DNA of 64,000 nucleotides from an uncultured bacterium (GTDB taxonomy: Bacteria > Actinomycetota > Acidimicrobiia > Spongiisociales > ZC4RG35), in contig CAWATW010000004.1 in assembly GCA_963785075.1 (NCBI GenBank), positions 338,516 to 402,515 on the forward strand, in the 5' to 3' direction. The notes under the pieces are model-generated. The model made no database searches. It saw only the letters and a list, made by a program, of their open reading frames with translations, and was not told the DNA's origin. The translations under genes and the position numbers were made by a program. Of the stretch, positions 15,267-61,560 are shown one piece after another. How positions within the stretch are numbered: the stretch's first letter is position 1; every line of letters starts with the position of its first letter.

Positions 15267-15426
15267 CGCTCGACCAGGTACACGGGTGTCGGTGTCCGTG
15301 CCGACAGCCGACGACCGGCATGGGCACGAGGGGACTCGAGGGCCATAGGCGTCTTCCGTTGTCCACCAAGCACGTCCGAGAAACCTCGGGGCTGGAACTG
15401 TCACACCACTTCGCGATAATCGACGA

Positions 15427-16665
15427 GTGGGAGCAGTTGCAGAGATCCTCCATCTCGACCTCGATGCGTTCTATGCATCGGTCGAGCAGCTCCTACGCCC
15501 CGAGCTCCGGGGCAGACCAGTCGTGGTAGGAGGCGGCGTGGTACTCGCCGCCTCCTACGAGGCCAGGGCCTTCGGTATATCGGCCCCCATGAACATCAGG
15601 CGGGCGAGAGAACTGTGCCCGCACGTCATCTCGGTGGGCGGGTCATTCGAGAAGTACTCCGAGCTCTCGCAACAGGTGATGGACATCTGCCGTGACGCCA
15701 CTCCCCTGGTGGAACAGATCTCGATCGACGAGGCGTTTCTCGACGTGTCAGGCTCCATCCACCTGCTCGGTGCCCCCGCCGACATCGGGGCCGACCTCAG
15801 AGCACGGATCCGGGCCGAGGTCGGCCTTCCCATCTCGGTGGGTGTGGCATCGACCAAGTTCCTCGCCAAGGTGGCCTCGGGCCAGGCCAAACCCGACGGC
15901 ATGCTCGTCATCGACCCCGCTCGTGAGCTCGAGTGGTTGCACGCGCTCCCCGTACGCGTGATCTGGGGTGTCGGACCGGTCACGGAGACCAACCTCATCG
16001 CCCACGGGATAGAACGGGTCGGACAGATCGCCGAGGCGCCTCCCGAGGCGCTCGCACGGTGGTTGGGACCTGGCGCCGGTCGACACCTCCACGCACTCGC
16101 CTGGAATCGTGACCCCCGATCCGTCAAGGTTGGAGGGCGGGCGGGTTCCGTCGGTGCCCAGAGCGCCCTCGGTCGCGGCCTCACCGCCGACTCGGACCTC
16201 GGCCGCGTCGTGCTGGGGCTCGCAGATCGAGTCTCGGGACGTATGCGCAAGAAGGAACGAGCGGGTCGCACGATCACCGTGCGGGTTCGCTTTGCCGACA
16301 TGGCCAGCGTGACACGGTCCGTCACCCTCCCGGCCGCAGTGTCGACCACGGCAGCGCTTCATCATGCGGGCCTCGAGCTGTTGGCCTCGGCTCGCGCCGA
16401 TCGACCAGGGATCGTGACGCTGGTTGGCATCAGCGTCTCTCATCTCGAGCAGGGCGAAACCCTCCAACTCGAGCTGCCCTTCGACCAGGGTGACCCGACC
16501 CGTGCAGGCAGCCCTCGTGGGGCGGCGCACCTCATGATCGACGAACAGGTCGACGCAGCCAGGGAACGTTTTGGGAAGGATGCGGTCGGCCGAGCATCGG
16601 TGATGCTCGATCGGAACGCGAGGGGCGTTCCCGACGGCTTCCGCGAGTTGGCCGAGAAGGAGTAG
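15427..16665 (+). CDS. dinB: DNA polymerase IV (Y-family, DinB)
   Basis: ILHLDLDAFYASVEQ, RPVVVGGG, AASYEARAFGI, SIDEAFLDVSG and VGVASTKFLAKVASGQAKPDG are all DinB motifs. GTG start. Confidence 0.85.
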   Translation: MGAVAEILHLDLDAFYASVEQLLRPELRGRPVVVGGGVVLAASYEARAFGISAPMNIRRARELCPHVISVGGSFEKYSELSQQVMDICRDATPLVEQISIDEAFLDVSGSIHLLGAPADIGADLRARIRAEVGLPISVGVASTKFLAKVASGQAKPDGMLVIDPARELEWLHALPVRVIWGVGPVTETNLIAHGIERVGQIAEAPPEALARWLGPGAGRHLHALAWNRDPRSVKVGGRAGSVGAQSALGRGLTADSDLGRVVLGLADRVSGRMRKKERAGRTITVRVRFADMASVTRSVTLPAAVSTTAALHHAGLELLASARADRPGIVTLVGISVSHLEQGETLQLELPFDQGDPTRAGSPRGAAHLMIDEQVDAARERFGKDAVGRASVMLDRNARGVPDGFRELAEKE

Positions 16666-16765
16666 AAGCGACCGGACGCGAGCAGGCGGATTTCCGCCCG
16701 ACGCCGAACGCCCGACGGAACCCGCAAACCACAACACGGGGGCCGGGCAGGCATAGGCTGGAACG

Positions 16766-17512
16766 ATGCGGCTGACGGTCATCGGGTCTGCGGGCGGATA
16801 TCCGGCACCGGGTGTTGCCACCTCCGGCTACCTCATCGACCACGGCGAAACCAGGATCTGGTGTGACATCGGTCCGGGCACGGTGGTCGGGTTCCCAGAC
16901 CGGTTGGACACTGTGGACGCGGTCGTCGTCTCCCACGAGCACCCGGATCACTGCCTCGACCTGATCGCGCTGTTCCACGCCCTGGCGTACCGCTTGGGGC
17001 CACCACCAGGGCCTCTGGCGGTGTATGCCCCGCGCCCGGCGATCGACAAGGTCAGAGCCTTCGTGACTCCCGACCAGACGGAACTCATCGACCGAACGTT
17101 CTCGTTCCATCCCATCGAGGTCGATTCGATCGTGGAGGTCGGATCGATTCGGGCCACCTTCGCCGAGACCACACACCCCGTGCAGACGGTGGCGATGCGA
17201 TTCACGGCCGACGGCCACAGTATCGCCTACACCGGCGACACCGGCCCCGCCGGCGACTGGACGAGGGTCGCCGTCGACGCCGACCTACTCCTGTGTGAGG
17301 CGACGTTCGTGGGCACACGAGACGACTACCCCTACCCGTATCACCTCAACGCCTTCGAAGCCGGGCGCATCGCAGCCGCGAGCGGCGTCGACCGGTTGGT
17401 ACTGACGCACATCCCGATGCATTGGGACCCGGCACGATCGCTGATCGAGGCGGGGACCCACTTCGACGGGGATCTGCGCCTCGCCGAGCCCGGTGCCTCC
17501 TGCTCGATCTGA
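16766..17512 (+). CDS. MBL-fold metallo-hydrolase
   Basis: VVVSHEHPDHCLDL (HxHxDH motif) plus downstream His/Asp ligands. Confidence 0.75.
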   Translation: MRLTVIGSAGGYPAPGVATSGYLIDHGETRIWCDIGPGTVVGFPDRLDTVDAVVVSHEHPDHCLDLIALFHALAYRLGPPPGPLAVYAPRPAIDKVRAFVTPDQTELIDRTFSFHPIEVDSIVEVGSIRATFAETTHPVQTVAMRFTADGHSIAYTGDTGPAGDWTRVAVDADLLLCEATFVGTRDDYPYPYHLNAFEAGRIAAASGVDRLVLTHIPMHWDPARSLIEAGTHFDGDLRLAEPGASCSI

Positions 17513-22079: not shown

Positions 22080-22886
22080 TCACCCGGCGAGCGGATCGGC
22101 TTCCAGTTCCGACTCCGGCAGGGTCGCAAACACTTGCGCCGTGGCTTCGGCGAAGAGGCGGGACTCCGTCTCGACGAACCCAACGTGGCCATCGAGGTCG
22201 AGACGCTTCATAGCGATCCGGAGTGGTATGTCCAGACATCGTGTGGGGGACTCGTCTTCGACCGCGCACATCGCTGCGGCGAGCGCCCGCTCCATCTCGG
22301 TGACGGGCTCGTGATGGGCGGCGACGGCCGCCACGATGTCGGTGGGGAGATTCCACTCGGCGAGCATCTTGGTGCCCATCTCGAGATGATCGGTTTCGTA
22401 CGCCATTCGCTCGCGACGCAACATCTGCTGGTCCTGGTACCCCCGCATCCACTGCTTCCGACGCCATGCCAGGAAGCCTTCGTCCGTCGTGAGCAGTCCG
22501 GCCGTGCCGGCGGCGGAGAACAGCCCCGCCACGAACAACTGCTCGTTCTCGGCCCGGGAGAAGCCGAGGAGGCGTCCGATCAGCTTGGCGGCACGGCCCA
22601 CGACGAGAGACTCCTCCCACAGCTCAGGGGCACCCCAGGTGTCGACCAGCTCGCGGTTCAACGACGCCATGGCGAGAGCACCCACCGAGCGGCAGCCGAC
22701 TCGGATCACAGCCTCCATCACCGTTCCCACGGGATACACGGCGCCGACGTACGCAGAGTTGGCATACCGCACGACCGCTGCTGCCGTGTCGGGGATCGTC
22801 GCCACGCGGGCAGCTACCTCATACAGGTCCGGATCGTTGGCCATAGCCGCCGTCCAGAGCTCTACCTTGCGCGAGCCGAGGTCCAT
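22080..22886 (-). CDS. HDOD-domain protein (paralog 2)
   Basis: ..VYPVGTVMEAVIRVGCRSVGALAMASLNREL.., ..LFVAGLFSAAG.., ..AHHEP.. are HD-related output domain signatures. About 65% identical to the adjacent paralog. Confidence 0.7.
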   Translation of the reverse strand: MDLGSRKVELWTAAMANDPDLYEVAARVATIPDTAAAVVRYANSAYVGAVYPVGTVMEAVIRVGCRSVGALAMASLNRELVDTWGAPELWEESLVVGRAAKLIGRLLGFSRAENEQLFVAGLFSAAGTAGLLTTDEGFLAWRRKQWMRGYQDQQMLRRERMAYETDHLEMGTKMLAEWNLPTDIVAAVAAHHEPVTEMERALAAAMCAVEDESPTRCLDIPLRIAMKRLDLDGHVGFVETESRLFAEATAQVFATLPESELEADPLAG

Positions 22887-22998
22887 GATGCGTCAATATC
22901 TCCTTGGAGGACCGGTCGGCCGTTTCGGACGCTGGAAAAGACCTCGGGAGGCGTTGATCGGGCCTGTACGCCGATTCCGGCGCCCAGGCGTGGATCTG

Positions 22999-23811
22999 TC
23001 AGGCGACTCGTTCGGCGACACGCTTCGACGCCACTGCGGCTCCGGGTGAGTCGCCCTCTCCGAACACGGCCTCCACGTACCGAAGCGCCTCGACGCGCAC
23101 GGAATCCACGTGCTTCGACAGTCCGATCTCGTCCATCGCTGCGGTGAACGGAGTGTCATGACACCTCGTTGCCGATCGTGAATCCGGGATGGTCATCCCC
23201 GCCCACAAGGCGAGGTCGAACCGATTCCGGGGCTCGTGATGCGACGCGACCGCATCGATGATCGAGGTGGGCATGTTCCACTCGTCGAGCAGGCGAGACG
23301 CGGCGACCACGTGATCGAACTCATAAGCCATCCGCTCACGATGCAGCATCTGATCCTCGCCAAGCCCCTTCACCCATTGGTTGGCTCGCCACGAGAGGTA
23401 GCCGGCGTCCTGGGCGCTGAGCGCAGCGGCACCTGCACTCGAGAAGAGACCAGCGACGAACAGGGACTCGGATTCGCGGCGGGGGAAGCCGTGGAGCCGA
23501 CCGATCATTCGAGCTGCACGGCCCACAGCAAGGGCGTCTGATGCCAACTCGGGGATGTCCCACCGATCGGCCAACTCACGATTCAGCGAGGCGAGCGCTA
23601 TCGCTCCGACCTGCCGACCACCGATCCGCACGACTGCGTCGAGCACACTCGCGACGGGGTACACCGCACCGACGTAGGAGGAGTTGGCGAAACGGATGAC
23701 CGCGCTCACCGTATCGGGGATCGTGCCGAGCAGTGCAGCGATCCCGAACACATCGGGCTCATCATCCGAGGCCAATCGCCACAATTCGAGTTTGCGCTCA
23801 ACGACATCCAT
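22999..23811 (-). CDS. HDOD-domain protein (paralog 1)
   Basis: Start chosen at MDVVERKLELW by alignment with paralog 2 (MDLGSRKVELW). Carries ..ASHHEP.. Confidence 0.7.
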   Translation of the reverse strand: MDVVERKLELWRLASDDEPDVFGIAALLGTIPDTVSAVIRFANSSYVGAVYPVASVLDAVVRIGGRQVGAIALASLNRELADRWDIPELASDALAVGRAARMIGRLHGFPRRESESLFVAGLFSSAGAAALSAQDAGYLSWRANQWVKGLGEDQMLHRERMAYEFDHVVAASRLLDEWNMPTSIIDAVASHHEPRNRFDLALWAGMTIPDSRSATRCHDTPFTAAMDEIGLSKHVDSVRVEALRYVEAVFGEGDSPGAAVASKRVAERVA

Positions 23812-23867
23812 CACGTCACGCTCCCCCGTCGACCAGGTCGGTGCGACCAAAAGCGCTTGGCAGCGGA

Positions 23868-53142: not shown

Positions 53143-54855
53143 GTGTTCGGGGGAATGCGACTGACCGATCGGAGCCGAAGCCGGAGCCGGCTCGCACCGA
53201 TCGTGGCGATCATCGGAATGCTCATCGCGGTGGTTCCCGCCTCGGCACCGCGGGTTGAAACGATGCATCAGGTGATCGTGCGTGCCGACTCTGCGATGCT
53301 CGATGTCGTCCGTCGCAACGTGGAGTCGCTGGGCGGCGTCATCGTCCGCGACCTTTCGATCATCAACGGTTTCGCAGCACGAGTGCCGGCGGGACTCGAT
53401 GCCGCATCGTTGCCCGGAGTCACCGAGGTGACCACCGACGGTCGCATCGAGCTGTCCTCGTCTCGAGCCGGGGGCGGGTACACGTCGATGCGGACCCTGA
53501 CCGACCGCGTGCTCGATGTCGATCGGCTCTGGGCGCGAGGGATCACGGGTGCCGGCGTGGGTGTCGCCCTGATCGACACGGGTGTGACGCCTGTGGGCGG
53601 GCTCGACGGAGACGGAAAGATCGTGAACGGTCCCGACCTGTCCTTCGACGCCGAATTCGAGAACCTCAGGTGGCTCGACATGTACGGGCACGGAACCCAC
53701 CTGGCGGGCATCATCGCGGGCGAGGACCCTCAGTTCTCACCACGCAGCAGCCGCCGCAACGTGTTCGCCGGGGTGGCACCTGAGGCCCAGATCGTCAACG
53801 TCAAAGTGGCAGACGCCACCGGGACCGCCGACGTCTCGCAGGTCATAGCCGGAATCCAGTGGGTTGTGGACCACAAGGACGACGGTCCGGTCGACATCAG
53901 GGTGTTGACGCTGGCGTTCGGAACCGATGGCACGCAGGCCTACACACTCGATCCGCTCGCTCACGCCGCCGAAGTGGCGTGGCACGAGGGCATCGTGGTC
54001 GTTGTCGCCGCCGGCAACGACGCTGCCGCACGGCCACTCCGCAACCCGGCCACGGACCCCTACGTGATCGCGGTGGGAGCGCTGGACCCCGCCAACAGCT
54101 CGAAGGTGTCGGATGATCGGCTGTTGGCGTTCTCGAACTGCGGCACCGCCGAACGCTCCGTGGATGTTCTTGCGCCGGGTAGATCCATCGCCAGTCTCCG
54201 AGTCGGAGGCTCCTTCATCGACGATCAGTACCCGGAGGCACGCACAGGTCGCCGGTACTTCCGGGGCACAGGAACGTCACAGGCCGCGGCGGTCGTGTCT
54301 GGAGCAGCAGCATTGTTGATCGACCAACGGCCCGATCTGACTCCAGATCAGGTCAAGGAGTTGCTGACCGAATCGGCACGCACCGTTGCGAGCGCCGGCG
54401 GAGCCTGCGCGCAAGCCGGATCTCTCGACGTTCGCCGAGCGTCGGCGAGTCCCACGCCCACCGTGGCTCAGGACTTCGACCGGTCTGACGGATCGGGATC
54501 ATTGGAGGCCGCTCGAGGGTCGTACCACGTGTCACACGACGGCATCGTTCTCGAAGGCGAGATCGACGTCACTGGAGGCACCTGGAGCGGAGGCACCTGG
54601 TCCGGAGGCACCTGGTCAGGAGGCACCTGGTCCGGAGGCACCTGGCGGAGGCCCTCAGGAGGCACCTGGTCCGGAGGCACCTGGAGCGGAGGCACCTGGT
54701 CCGGAGGCACCTGGTCCGGAGGCACCTGGTCCGGAGGCACCTGGAGCGGAGGCACCTGGTCCGGAGGCACCTGGTCCGGAGGCACCTGGAGCGGAGGCAC
54801 GTGGTCCGGAGGCACCTGGTCAGGGAGCACCTGGTCGGGTGCCCGATGGCGGTGA
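53143..54855 (+). CDS. secreted subtilisin-like serine protease (S8) with a C-terminal array of about 18 GGTWS pentapeptide repeats
   Basis: Signal peptide, catalytic triad contexts ..GVGVALIDTGV.. (Asp), ..HGTHLAGIIAG.. (His), ..GTGTSQAAAVVSGAAALL.. (Ser). C-term TGGTWSGGTWSGGTWS..WRRPSGGTWS(x12)..GSTWSGARWR. Confidence 0.85.
   Translation: MFGGMRLTDRSRSRSRLAPIVAIIGMLIAVVPASAPRVETMHQVIVRADSAMLDVVRRNVESLGGVIVRDLSIINGFAARVPAGLDAASLPGVTEVTTDGRIELSSSRAGGGYTSMRTLTDRVLDVDRLWARGITGAGVGVALIDTGVTPVGGLDGDGKIVNGPDLSFDAEFENLRWLDMYGHGTHLAGIIAGEDPQFSPRSSRRNVFAGVAPEAQIVNVKVADATGTADVSQVIAGIQWVVDHKDDGPVDIRVLTLAFGTDGTQAYTLDPLAHAAEVAWHEGIVVVVAAGNDAAARPLRNPATDPYVIAVGALDPANSSKVSDDRLLAFSNCGTAERSVDVLAPGRSIASLRVGGSFIDDQYPEARTGRRYFRGTGTSQAAAVVSGAAALLIDQRPDLTPDQVKELLTESARTVASAGGACAQAGSLDVRRASASPTPTVAQDFDRSDGSGSLEAARGSYHVSHDGIVLEGEIDVTGGTWSGGTWSGGTWSGGTWSGGTWRRPSGGTWSGGTWSGGTWSGGTWSGGTWSGGTWSGGTWSGGTWSGGTWSGGTWSGGTWSGSTWSGARWR
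54574..54837 (+). repeat. about 17.6 tandem copies of a 15-bp unit ggaggcacctggwsc encoding GGTWS, in two blocks (5 + 12) separated by a variant unit
   Basis: Directly read. The long antisense ORF 54468-56204 (PDQVPP repeats) is its shadow. Confidence 0.9.
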
Positions 54856-57399: not shown

Positions 57400-58926
57400 T
57401 CAGCCGCCTGCGGCCCGGCCCGAATTCGGGTCGACGATCAGCCCCGACACGTCGACCGCCTCGAAGGACGAGCCCGGAATCGTCTTCAGCTCATCGAGGA
57501 TGTCATTGTCCCAACGGTCGTCGGGTGCACCGGAGATGTACCAGGCCGAACCATTGTCCGCCAGGATGATCCCGTACTCCTGGAAGGCGCGGAGAATCAC
57601 CTGCACATCGGTGGAGAATCCCGAGATGTCGAAGGACCCGGACAGTCGGAATCGTTGACCCATGGGGGGAACGTCGAGATCGGTGTTCGACGATGCGAAA
57701 TGACGGGCGGGCCAAACGTATGCCTGCTGGGTGACAGGAGCAGTGAAGCGAATGGCATGATCGATCTCCCCGGATGCGACCTCGTCGAAGCGCACCAGAC
57801 CCGGGTAGATGGGCAGACCGGCGGCGTCGGCCGAAGTCCACCCCGCCGGTCGAAGCGCGTTCGAGGTGAGGTCATATCGGGCGGCTGAATCGGCAGACCA
57901 CACGGCGCCCCCATTCAGCGGGAACGCTCGGTACATCTCGTAGAGCACGCAATCTCCGGTATCGAGAACCAGGACGTGGCGATCCCCGTCCGAGTTCGGC
58001 CCTCCTTCGATCGGCGCATCGGACGGCACCGGGTAGGGGCCAGGGTCGCTCTCATCCCCGTAGGCCGTGAACACGATGGGCACCTCGGGCTGATCGGCGT
58101 CCACTTCGACGTATGGGATCCCGATCGGTGCGCCCTCCCAGAGGCCCGAGCCAAAGTCGGGATGGAGGTTCGACGATCCGATCGAAGCCACGTATGCAGC
58201 CGACCGAACGTGGAGAGGTAGGTCGTCCACGCGACTGTTCCAGATGTTGTCGTCGGGAAGCACCGGACAGCGCTCGGGGACGACGACGGGCGCGAGACCC
58301 TCCGCACGACCGAGGAATGACGCCATCTGATCTCGACGCACCGGGTCGTCGGGGCAGAACCGATCGTTGTCGGGCGGGTTGCATCCAAGCGTGACCCCCG
58401 CCACGGCGAGTCGTTCGATGTCGTTCTCGAACACCGAGTCGTCATCGTCTCCGAAGAGGTCCCCGGTTGCGGGCGGATAGGCGTACGCCCTCACGAGGAA
58501 CGCCGCCATCTGACCCCGCGAGACAGGGTCGTCCGGACAGAATCGAGTGTTCTGCGGAGGATCGCACCCTCGTGTCACACCGGCTTCGGCCAGGGCTTCG
58601 ATGTCGTCCTCGAACACCGTCCCGTCATCGTCTCCGAAACTGTCCGAGCCGGACGAGGCCGGGAGGCCGAGCGCCCGAACGAGGAACGCCGCCATCTGCC
58701 CCCGTGTGACCACGTCAGAAGGGCAGTACCGATCGTTGGCCGGTGGATTGCACCCTCTCGTTATCCCCGCAGCTGCGACCGCCTCGATCATCCCTTCATG
58801 GACGTTGCCGTCGTCGTCGACGAACGTGCCGCCGGGCTCAGCCGCCCACGAGGGGCTCATGAGCACGATCGAAGCGACCAGCGCGACGACGAGCGCCACG
58901 GGACCACGAATCCTGGCGATGATCAC
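57400..58926 (-). CDS. secreted protein with three SLH-like repeats (F.DDDG.VFE.DIE.LA.AGVTRGC.PP.N.RFCPDDPV.R.QMAAFLVRA) and a ~330-aa C-terminal domain of unknown function
   Basis: Signal peptide ..IIARIRGPVALVVALVASIVLMSPSWA. Three ~60-aa repeats. Probable GTG start (58926). The ORF-track N-terminal extension is junk. Confidence 0.55.
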   Translation of the reverse strand: MIIARIRGPVALVVALVASIVLMSPSWAAEPGGTFVDDDGNVHEGMIEAVAAAGITRGCNPPANDRYCPSDVVTRGQMAAFLVRALGLPASSGSDSFGDDDGTVFEDDIEALAEAGVTRGCDPPQNTRFCPDDPVSRGQMAAFLVRAYAYPPATGDLFGDDDDSVFENDIERLAVAGVTLGCNPPDNDRFCPDDPVRRDQMASFLGRAEGLAPVVVPERCPVLPDDNIWNSRVDDLPLHVRSAAYVASIGSSNLHPDFGSGLWEGAPIGIPYVEVDADQPEVPIVFTAYGDESDPGPYPVPSDAPIEGGPNSDGDRHVLVLDTGDCVLYEMYRAFPLNGGAVWSADSAARYDLTSNALRPAGWTSADAAGLPIYPGLVRFDEVASGEIDHAIRFTAPVTQQAYVWPARHFASSNTDLDVPPMGQRFRLSGSFDISGFSTDVQVILRAFQEYGIILADNGSAWYISGAPDDRWDNDILDELKTIPGSSFEAVDVSGLIVDPNSGRAAGG

Positions 58927-59411
58927 ACTCTCCCGATCATGGCACTCGTGCGGCCGAGAATCTGCCTCATGACGTCGATGGACCCCATGGGATCGCCCGG
59001 GATCTCGAAGTACCGATCGACACGTGCGAGGTGCAGCACCTCGAACTGGCGGAGCCGCGCCGCCGAGGCCCGATCCCACCCGTCATCGGAGAGGCTCCCG
59101 ACGATGAGACCCGGGCCCTTGGCAATGGAGAGCGCGGTAGCAGTGTCCGGATCGGCGAAGTTGGGTGACAGCCATACGCCGAGCTCGACATCGGCTGCAC
59201 GTGTGCAACCGGCACCGAATGCCACCACCAGCCCGACATCGTGCAAGGAATCGGTCACTTGGGCAACGACACAGTCATGCCCGGCCTTGGCGATCAACCC
59301 ACGGACGTAGTGAAGGAGCGGCAGCCCTGCCGCTTCTTCCGTGGGGATGACGACGCACTTCGCCACAGACCTCCGAGTATCGACCTGCTCACGGTACCGG
59401 TCGGATCGCAC
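58923..59411 (-). CDS. hypothetical protein between phoH2 and the SLH-repeat gene
   Basis: ORF with plausible composition, co-directional and tightly spaced. No family recognised. Confidence 0.3.
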   Translation of the reverse strand: MRSDRYREQVDTRRSVAKCVVIPTEEAAGLPLLHYVRGLIAKAGHDCVVAQVTDSLHDVGLVVAFGAGCTRAADVELGVWLSPNFADPDTATALSIAKGPGLIVGSLSDDGWDRASAARLRQFEVLHLARVDRYFEIPGDPMGSIDVMRQILGRTSAMIGRV

Positions 59412-59441
59412 CGGCGTTGGCCCAGGCCAACTCCTTTGCGA

Positions 59442-60785
59442 TCAGAGGATCCGCGCCGCCATCTCGGCCAGCGGGCTCCGGATCGATTTCTCGAGTATCA
59501 CATGCCCGAACAGCGGCGAGTCCTTGAACTTCTCGATCAACGCCGCCATGCCGCCGTAGGGCGATACATACGGATTGTCGACCTGGGAGAGATCGCCGCA
59601 GAAGACGACTTTCGAATCCTTGCCCAACCGGGTGAGGATGACCTTCAACGTCGGAAGCTCGAGGTTCTGGGCTTCGTCGATGATCACGAACTCGCCGGTG
59701 ATCGACCGGCCGCGGAGATACGTGACGGCGGCCATCTCGAGCTCACCGCGCTCCAGCAGCTCGGTGACGGCAGCGTTGGCTCCCTCGGCCCCGCTGTCCT
59801 GGAACAGGGCGTGGAGGTTGTCATGGACGGCGGCCATCCAGGGCGCCAGCTTCTCGTCGAGGTCGCCAGGAAGATATCCAACTTCCTGACGCCCCACCGC
59901 CACCAGAGGCCGGTAGACCGACACCTTGCGGTACCGCTGTTGCTCGAGCACCTGTTCGAGGCCGGCGGCGAGAGCGAGAAACGTCTTGCCCGAACCCGCG
60001 GTTCCCATCATCGAGACGGCAGGGATGTCCGGATCGAGCAGATGGGTCATGGCCACCGTTTGCCGGAGGTTCTTGGGTTCGACGCCGAATGCCCTCGGGT
60101 GGTTGGTGACCCGTTCGACGGTCACGTGTGGGTTGGATTCGATGACGCGGGCCAGACCCGATCGTGAGATGTCGGCTTTCAAGGTCACGAAGTCGTTCAC
60201 GTCGGCTTCGACGCCGTCCAGCACGATCTTGCCCTCTTCGAAGAGTCTGTCGATCGTGTCACCTGTCGTCGTGACCTCGATCACCCCGGTGCGCAGTTCG
60301 GAGGCCTGCACCGTATCGGCGCGATAGTCCTCCACTTCGACACCGAGCTGCGCACCTTTGATCCGCAGCGAGGCGTCCTTGGTGACGAGGACAGGATCGC
60401 CGCCGACATCGGCGAGATTGAGGCAGGTGGCAAGGATCCTGTGGTCCGGGCTGTGCGGGTCGAGCACCTGCGGGAGGCGCTCCGACACGACGCCGTTCAG
60501 CTCGATACGGAGGCTTCCGCCGCCGGGGAGCGCCACCGGATCTCGAAGCCCTCCCGGTCGCGAGGCGCCGAGTTCCTCCAATGACCGGATCGCCATCCGG
60601 GCATTGGCGCCCACCTCGTCCATGCGGGTCTTCTTGCGATCCAGTTCCTCGATCACCACCAGTGGCAGAACCACCTGGTGCTCGTCGAACCGCAACGTGG
60701 CGTGCGGATCGGCGAGCAGAACACACGTGTCGAGGACGTAGGTGCGTGACACCTGATCGACTCCTTCAATCGGCCGGCGGTGCAT
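59442..60785 (-). CDS. PhoH2 (N-terminal PIN domain fused to a PhoH-like ATPase)
   Basis: PIN: ..TYVLDTCVLLADPHAT..VVLPLVVIEELD.. PhoH: ..MMGTAGSGKTFLALAAG.. Walker A, ..FVIIDEAQNL.. Walker B. Start at MHRRPIEG (60785). Confidence 0.85.
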   Translation of the reverse strand: MHRRPIEGVDQVSRTYVLDTCVLLADPHATLRFDEHQVVLPLVVIEELDRKKTRMDEVGANARMAIRSLEELGASRPGGLRDPVALPGGGSLRIELNGVVSERLPQVLDPHSPDHRILATCLNLADVGGDPVLVTKDASLRIKGAQLGVEVEDYRADTVQASELRTGVIEVTTTGDTIDRLFEEGKIVLDGVEADVNDFVTLKADISRSGLARVIESNPHVTVERVTNHPRAFGVEPKNLRQTVAMTHLLDPDIPAVSMMGTAGSGKTFLALAAGLEQVLEQQRYRKVSVYRPLVAVGRQEVGYLPGDLDEKLAPWMAAVHDNLHALFQDSGAEGANAAVTELLERGELEMAAVTYLRGRSITGEFVIIDEAQNLELPTLKVILTRLGKDSKVVFCGDLSQVDNPYVSPYGGMAALIEKFKDSPLFGHVILEKSIRSPLAEMAARIL

Positions 60786-60837
60786 CAGTATCCCCGACCA
60801 TTGGACGAAAAACGAGGACCAAAACGGTTGCCGCGAT

Positions 60838-61560
60838 GTGAATGAACCAGAGGACCTATGTCCGGGGTCGCCACGCCGGGCCGACGGTCCCGTGCGGGCC
60901 GTGAGCGTCCGCACCTTGCCGGGGCCCGCACGTTGGTCCAGAATCCGCACAGTGCCCGTCGACGTCGCCCTCGACCAACTCACTGCTCTGTTGCCGCTGG
61001 CGGATCGTCAGGCTGCGCTCGACTCACGCCTCCGGTCGGTGCATCGGAAGGTCCTCCGAGGATTCCTCGAGCATGCCGCGCCGCCGGAGGTGGATCCCGC
61101 CGATGCCATGGCGCTCGCCGGGGTCGACCTCGTCGTGACCGGCGCCGACGGAGCGATCACGGGGGCATACCCGTTCACTTTGGAGCACACTCCGCACGCC
61201 GTCCAAACGGGAGCCACCCACGTACACGTCATGTGCTCGCTGGATGCCCTCGCGGTCGCTCCCATGTACGGGGTGAGCACACGGGTGATCTCGAAATGCG
61301 CCATGTCCGGCGGTGCCATCGAAGTCCACCAGCGGGACGACGACCTGGTCTCGAATCGACCACCCGCACCGTGGATCGGCATCCGCTGGCAAGCGCCAGG
61401 CGAACATGCCGCCACGTCGCTGTGTCGGGAGATGGTGTTCCTCTCCGATGAGGAGGTTGCAGTGCGATGGCGGGGCGCCGACCCCCACTCGGCCGCGATC
61501 CTGCCGCTGCCCGAAGCGATCGAGCTCGCAGCCGCGTTCTTCGGTCCTCTCGCCGGCTGA
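60838..61560 (+). CDS. hypothetical protein, possibly organomercurial lyase (MerB)-like
   Basis: ..ATHVHVMCSLDALAV.. and ..ISKCAMSGGAIEV.. resemble the MerB Cys/Asp/Cys catalytic arrangement. Weak. Start uncertain. Confidence 0.3.
   Translation: MNEPEDLCPGSPRRADGPVRAVSVRTLPGPARWSRIRTVPVDVALDQLTALLPLADRQAALDSRLRSVHRKVLRGFLEHAAPPEVDPADAMALAGVDLVVTGADGAITGAYPFTLEHTPHAVQTGATHVHVMCSLDALAVAPMYGVSTRVISKCAMSGGAIEVHQRDDDLVSNRPPAPWIGIRWQAPGEHAATSLCREMVFLSDEEVAVRWRGADPHSAAILPLPEAIELAAAFFGPLAG

Follow-up and report, generated by a model that had tools for sequence, protein, structure and literature searches.

A secreted protein of an uncultured member of the Acidimicrobiia joins a cysteine-type SLH anchor to a putative catalytic module from a large unnamed family

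The closest described counterparts of the protein reported here are the surface-layer homology (SLH) proteins of Firmicutes, such as Sap of B. anthracis (3PYW), SbsB of G. stearothermophilus (4AQ1) and SpaA of P. alvei (6CWC), in which three tandem SLH repeats lie beside the signal peptide and the passenger is C-terminal. In SpaA and Sap, the ligand is contacted by SLH-Gly29 of the GIIxG motif and by the TRAE motif's SLH-Arg43, the latter touching the pyruvate (PMC6081394). A review places Actinobacteria among the three phyla richest in Pfam SLH matches (PMC6801904), and according to a survey SLH domains and CsaB are retained in some Actinobacteria (bioRxiv 10.1101/2021.05.31.446380). The present protein is encoded at positions 57400-58926, on the minus strand, of a 64,000-nucleotide stretch of DNA from an uncultured bacterium of the class Acidimicrobiia (contig CAWATW010000004.1 of assembly GCA_963785075.1), hereafter the window, and its gene follows those of a small hypothetical protein and of a PhoH2-type protein. 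It has the three tandem repeats beside a signal peptide and the C-terminal passenger of the Firmicutes proteins and is similar in sequence to Sap and SbsB across the repeats, with the GIIxG glycine and the TRAE arginine kept. On the other hand, its host belongs to the Acidimicrobiia, and what it carries as passenger is neither a lattice domain of S-layers nor an enzyme already known.

Read from a GTG codon at position 58926, the gene encodes 508 amino acids (aa), and its longest open reading frame (ORF) reaches 59079. This start is plausible: within the sequence GTGA at 58923-58926 it overlaps the stop codon of the preceding hypothetical gene, and a Shine-Dalgarno-like GGGAGA stands a few bases 5' of it. 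Database versions of the protein (P0001, 499 aa and 100% identical, and P0121, 506 aa) start 2-9 codons later. By inspection of the translation, the N-terminus VIIARIRGPVALVVALVASIVLMSPSWA (58843-58926) resembles a Sec signal peptide, with predicted cleavage before AEPGG, and the mature protein is acidic (isoelectric point 4.1) and contains eight cysteines in four apparent pairs. Judged from these features, the product is probably a Sec-exported, disulfide-stabilised surface protein.

Behind the signal peptide stand three tandem repeats of 61 aa, each with the pattern G[IV]T.GC-x9-[FY]CP-x4-5-R.Q and roughly 65-70% identical to one another when counted by eye in register. Repeat 1 (58645-58827) reads GITRGC-x9-YCP...TRGQ, repeat 2 (58462-58644) reads GVTRGC-x9-FCP...SRGQ and aligns to SLH2 of Sap, and repeat 3 (58279-58461), 66% identical to repeat 2, reads GVTLGC-x9-FCP...RRDQ and aligns to SLH3 of Sap. 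The original prediction had called them SLH-type, and the profile search carried out on them did not assign them to a different known family: the Pfam SLH model (PF00395) matches the whole protein with 30 bits (E=5e-7; cut-off 20.8), and, when repeats are scanned singly, repeat 2 with 22.6 bits, above the cut-off, and repeat 1 with 14.7 bits, below it. A phmmer search against PDB sequences additionally aligned query residues 38-180, which comprise the end of repeat 1 and repeats 2 and 3, to the Sap SLH trimer 3PYW (E=8.8e-6), and residues 17-181 to SbsB 4AQ1 (E=0.004). The glycine equivalent to SLH-Gly29 is present in all three repeats (GITRG, GVTRG, GVTLG), as is the arginine equivalent to SLH-Arg43 (TRGQ, SRGQ, RRDQ), the final glutamine of the latter motif being the one seen in TRAQ of SLH3 of SpaA. 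By these sequence criteria the repeats are true SLH domains, a type catalogued as PF00395 in Pfam and as PS51272 in PROSITE, with similarity far beyond chance. They differ from the Firmicutes repeats by a four-residue insertion flanked by cysteines in each repeat, by Phe or His in place of SLH-Trp13, and by the motif ending in Gln (TRGQ). In the alignment to Sap, GVTRG-C-DPPQNTRF-C-P stands opposite GVIKG-T-G----NGF-E-P, so that the cysteine variant amounts to a loop insertion after GIIxG bounded by two cysteines, which presumably form a disulfide staple.

This variant is common in related loci. A genome scan recovered 21 of them (L001-L021), the four closest (72-93% identity) from uncultured or Acidimicrobiia metagenome-assembled genomes (MAGs), which places the window in this class, and the cysteine-type motif is present in 16 of the 21, Acidobacteriota and Thermoanaerobaculia included. 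Within Acidimicrobiia MAGs the same triple module carries CAP/SCP, glucose/sorbosone dehydrogenase (GSDH), SpoIID and PD40 propeller passengers, and in one Acidobacteriota locus a DUF1800 passenger. Cysteine-type SLH is the standard surface-display anchor of Acidimicrobiia. Because the module recurs with many passengers and Actinobacteria are rich in SLH, the original prediction overstated matters in describing SLH repeats as rare in Actinobacteria and the cysteine variant as atypical; the first description is not supported, and of the second it holds that the repeats depart from the Pfam consensus by their insertion, but not that they are exceptional. In four loci from Acidobacteriota or Thermoanaerobaculia (L013, L015, L016 and L021) the domain order is reversed, the uncharacterised domain being N-terminal and the cysteine-type repeats C-terminal, and the divergent neighbour gene also has SLH-type repeats (with TIG, SLH and DUF1800 domains in L013). 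Since both orders exist, the pairing of passenger and anchor was assembled at least twice. Some individual carriers were also recorded, such as an SLH-anchored SpoIID-type peptidoglycan lytic enzyme at 6459-8459 of L010 and an SLH-anchored CAP/SCP protein at 3808-5493 of L002; the SpoIID and CAP carriers hint at a sizeable SLH surface proteome in uncultured Acidimicrobiia.

The passenger occupies 57403-58278 and forms a domain of about 290 aa, smaller than the 330 aa first proposed, which we regard as a putative catalytic module of a large unnamed family. The earlier remark that it lacks a recognisable family holds: it has no match in Pfam, NCBIfam or PDB sequences, whether the query was its own sequence or a profile, and among 78 diverse family members none has a Pfam match on the core, with MltA, 3D and DPBB (double-psi beta-barrel) models equally silent. 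A weak PDB match to an intradiol dioxygenase, over 36 residues and with an E value of 0.68, was put down to chance. The family itself is very large. A word-indexed search with the domain returned at least 8000 matches, of which the best 120 cover the whole domain at 66-100% identity, and an exhaustive search returned 9425 clusters at 50% identity with E<=1e-3, 2117 of them with E<=1e-30. Hundreds of proteins are 57-76% identical over 98-100% of the domain. Among the named sources of the family are Acidimicrobiia, Desulfobacterales, Vicinamibacteria, Chloroflexota, Desulfobulbus, Calditrichaceae and Thermoanaerobaculia. For the window protein and loci L005-L009, L013-L016 and L021, identity is 57-72% between Acidimicrobiia, Desulfobacterota, Chloroflexota and Calditrichota, while in Acidobacteriota it is about 40-45%. 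A secreted protein seldom shows such values across phyla; strong constraint may lie behind them, or a horizontal spread of recent date.

Members of the family combine the core with SLH, dockerin, CWB2, CBM4_9, CBM96, Laminin_G_3, beta-helix, Fn3, PKD, TIG, Ig-like and FG-GAP domains, and some hold two or three core copies in tandem; no fusion of the core to another catalytic Pfam domain was found among the members scanned. A catalytic core with appendages for anchoring and binding is built in this way. The structure prediction that had been proposed for the domain gave, with AlphaFold2 and 48 sequences, a confident, mostly beta model (predicted local distance difference test, pLDDT, 92.5; predicted template modelling score, pTM, 0.91), for which Foldseek found no match in the PDB.

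Structural and sequence relatives are found among phages. In BFVD, Foldseek matched the full-length domain to an unnamed 985-aa protein (1.7e-14) and to the minor tail protein of Gordonia phage Guillaume (8.8e-14, template modelling score 0.74), and further to a phage protein annotated as "parallel beta-helix repeat" (5e-11) and to two phage proteins of about 330 aa. PHROG 17388, a minor tail protein family, was matched at 4e-6, tblastn recovered the minor tail proteins of Gordonia phages Trax, Annalisa and Bunnybear, and eight IMG/VR contigs hold relatives at 33-54% identity, on one of which the 840-aa carrier gene lies directly 3' of the tape-measure gene. PDB sequence searches with two phage carrier proteins revealed no Dit- or Tal-like parts. 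The whole fold of about 290 aa is thus common to the secreted protein and to the minor tail proteins of these actinophages (Guillaume, Trax, Annalisa and Bunnybear; PHROG 17388), and the viral-contig homologues tested keep its invariant polar residues. The actinophage versions differ in being part of virion proteins of 560-985 aa and in lacking signal peptide, SLH repeats and the cysteine pair. An alignment of the viral copies (33-54% identical) with the most divergent bacterial ones left the following residues invariant, in domain numbering: S71, D72, E85, D93, H95, E108, R137, W141, T142, S143, D145, H168, R171, H187, R205, D235 and G237. Three of them are His, six are acidic and three are Arg, and every one is present in the window protein; the cysteine pair (an upstream Cys and C104) and H33/D35 are kept mostly only in the secreted bacterial forms. 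Conserved to such depth, the three His, six acidic and three Arg residues resemble an active site, one that may depend on a metal and would suit an anionic substrate.

The reading we favour, at a probability of about 0.55, is that of an exported, SLH-anchored protein whose enzyme passenger cleaves a surface polymer; it builds on homology that was observed and on a binding, a ligand, a catalysis and a substrate that we infer. After Sec export and cleavage of the signal peptide, oxidative folding would close a disulfide in the loop of each of the three SLH repeats and a fourth in the passenger. The three repeats would fold into the usual pseudo-threefold SLH trimer and, through three Arg/Gly grooves, dock without a covalent bond on a secondary wall polymer that is anionic and probably pyruvylated. 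The C-terminal enzyme, tethered in this manner and probably metal-dependent or working by acid/base catalysis, would then cleave a wall or extracellular polymer, candidate substrates being peptidoglycan, a wall polysaccharide or exopolysaccharide, or a phosphodiester-linked glycopolymer, and phages would deploy the same module on their tails. The passenger is read as an enzyme acting on surface polymers because of its invariant polar residues, the binding and anchoring domains that accompany it, and its relatives in phage tails. Several results weigh against this reading. On the side of the anchor, repeat 3 alone has no Pfam SLH match; SLH-Trp13 is not kept, the position of the Sap tryptophan being Val, with Phe (repeats 2 and 3) or His (repeat 1) adjacent; and a Pfam scan of approximately 51 ORFs from the 64-kb window found no CsaB (PS_pyruv_trans, PF04230). 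On the side of the passenger, five stand-alone homologues on long contigs have no recurrent gene neighbour that hints at a substrate, alignment of the family profile to E. coli MltA by hhalign gave a probability of only 0.15%, and a location in phage tails fits receptor binding as well as it fits catalysis.

This last point leads to the strongest alternative, that the domain is a non-catalytic lectin or adhesin, displayed by SLH repeats in bacteria and serving phages as a receptor-binding domain. It is present in phage minor tail proteins, once beside the tape-measure gene, where receptor-binding or evolved distal-tail proteins typically sit, frequent partner domains are adhesin-like (FG-GAP, Ig-like and Fn3), and no catalytic family was detected. 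However, 17 mostly charged residues that stay invariant down to 33% identity resemble an active site more than a sugar-binding face, CBM4_9, CBM96, dockerin, SLH and CWB2 domains are usually appended to catalytic cores, and a core 57-72% identical across phyla would be unusual for a lectin; we therefore regard a binding-only role as unlikely, though the best placed of the alternatives. Somewhat more doubtful still is a lytic transglycosylase of the MltA-like, double-psi beta-barrel type, which would make the protein an SLH-tethered autolysin that remodels the peptidoglycan of its own cell. The domain differs from MltA, GH45 and expansin DPBB proteins in that its similarity to them is below significance, profile similarity is lacking and no shared catalytic motif was established; no significant structural similarity to a solved MltA or DPBB member was found. 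Given the hhalign value, the resemblance to MltA is therefore a lead and not a sign of membership.

Beyond the favoured reading of a polymer-cleaving passenger, the domain might, as a tentative extension, be the founding member of a new extracellular enzyme class, its fold lacking any solved relative and its active site rich in His, Asp and Arg, and be common to many phyla and to phage tails. If so, it could stand for a new type of cleavage, for example of a cell-envelope glycopolymer or of peptidoglycan, in a protein family that would rank among the larger ones as yet lacking functional or structural annotation.

The SLH gene is the last of three consecutive minus-strand ORFs within 57400-60985, as the ORF list confirms for the three same-strand genes first described. 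The first is phoH2, a fusion of PIN_4 and the PhoH ATPase at 59442-60785 (447 aa from an ATG at 60785, the start assumed originally and judged likely here), and the second, at 58923-59366, encodes the hypothetical protein (147 aa from a GTG at 59366; longest ORF 162 aa from 59411). The gap between these two is 30-75 nt, and no terminator-like site was found between the three genes in the window, where co-transcription of all three is possible. In four related MAGs (L001-L004) the order PGM, methyltransferase, merB-like gene (opposite strand), phoH2, hypothetical gene, SLH gene and GGDEF/EAL gene (opposite strand) is kept, and the hypothetical and SLH genes are adjacent in all four. The stretch from phoH2 to the SLH gene is intact in L001 and L004, whereas L002 and L003 have a gene for an SLH-CAP protein, on the opposite strand, between phoH2 and the hypothetical gene. 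The unit can thus do without phoH2: what functions together is the pair of hypothetical and SLH genes, and phoH2 is a conserved neighbour with no functional tie to the surface protein. Of the operon that the original prediction had drawn around all three genes, the coupling of the last two by the GTGA overlap stands, but the attachment of phoH2 does not.

The small hypothetical protein has no match in Pfam, NCBIfam, PHROG or the PDB; a dihydroorotate dehydrogenase, returned by a PDB profile search, was a match at chance level. Only six close homologues were found, besides the syntenic copies in L002-L004, which are 41-44% identical, and within the L001-L004 clade the gene is always immediately upstream of the SLH gene. 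A role for it as general partner of the C-terminal domain was considered and rejected, its hidden Markov model matching only this clade. Its AlphaFold2 model, of moderate confidence, has an alpha/beta fold of alternating strands and helices (pLDDT 74, pTM 0.73). By its sequence and position, the protein is translationally coupled to the SLH gene and lineage-restricted to this Acidimicrobiia clade; it carries no signal peptide and is presumably cytoplasmic, and it may act as a folding or export helper, as a regulator or as an inhibitor.

PhoH2 is described in PMC5499597 and PMC4826407 as a sequence-specific RNA helicase and RNase that in mycobacteria is paired with an upstream antitoxin, PhoAT. 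The gene in the window shares its two-domain architecture with the PhoH2 of mycobacteria and Thermobispora (Andrews & Arcus 2015, as cited in those two papers). The PIN-PhoH fusion that had been proposed is borne out by both Pfam domains, PIN_4 with 95.6 bits (aa 82-221 of the scanned ORF) and PhoH with 158.3 bits (aa 301-509), and the protein is 85-98% identical in the four syntenic Acidimicrobiia MAGs. It differs from the described proteins in scoring 380.9 bits against the NCBIfam model "RNA 5'-3' helicase PhoH2" (NF053827), below the equivalog cut-off of 680, and in having no conserved PhoAT-like ORF upstream. It is a PhoH2 by architecture, and not by curated equivalog status, and on this evidence of an ordinary known kind. 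The sole upstream ORF (48 aa, 60785-60931, rich in Arg, Pro and Gly) was examined as a PhoAT-like antitoxin and rejected, since L001, which is 93% identical, keeps it but L002-L004 do not. The label "toxin-like" describes the known PhoH2 family accurately but goes too far here, where no PhoAT-like antitoxin ORF is conserved upstream. About 60 nt 5' of phoH2 (60786-60850) are conserved at the nucleotide level in L001-L004 (…GGTCCTCGYGTTTCTC…GGGSRATACTG…) and end in GATACT, a -10-like hexamer, right at the annotated phoH2 ATG, which suggests a promoter, with perhaps a leaderless transcript or a later start of phoH2. That the three genes make up one module, for example a toxin-antitoxin or defence system with the 147-aa protein as the neutraliser of PhoH2 and the surface protein as sensor or effector, would fit their shared strand, the short gaps, the 4-nt overlap, the uninterrupted order in two of the MAGs and the partner antitoxin of mycobacterial PhoH2 (PMC4826407), but it is very improbable and already largely refuted by synteny, given that the SLH-CAP gene separates phoH2 while the hypothetical gene stays with the SLH gene, that the mycobacterial antitoxin lies upstream, where no conserved ORF is found here, and that the surface-protein family overwhelmingly occurs without either of the other genes.

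Some other features of the window were recorded. A gene for a MerB-like alkylmercury lyase (60838-61560, plus strand; 90.7 bits in Pfam) is divergent from phoH2 and holds the same position in the four related MAGs. A subtilase gene (53143-54855, plus strand; Peptidase_S8, 134 bits) carries at its end about 17 GGTWS pentapeptides in tandem, an unusual C-terminal tail encoded by a 15-nt repeat at 54574-54836 (17.9 copies, 86% matches). Approximately from 1500 to 29000 lies a large flagellar cluster with genes for FliF, FliG, FliI, an SLT-domain protein, FlgE, MotA, FliP, FliR, FlhB, FlhA, a FliA-like sigma factor, flagellin and FlgK. Between fliR and flhB stand genes for a DinB-type polymerase (15349-16665) and for a protein of the metallo-beta-lactamase fold (16757-17512), and two HDOD-domain genes are found at 22080-23850.

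The anchor type and PhoH2 are both known and ordinary; the one element that deserves attention is a family that is large, conserved, secreted and shared with phages, with neither a Pfam or NCBIfam model nor a solved relative. Assigning an activity to the domain would annotate thousands of environmental proteins and could uncover a new enzyme for degrading walls or exopolymers, of use as lysin or depolymerase. For the Acidimicrobiia themselves, the use of a cysteine-stapled SLH module as a class-wide anchor implies an uncharacterised, possibly pyruvylated, polymer in the cell wall.

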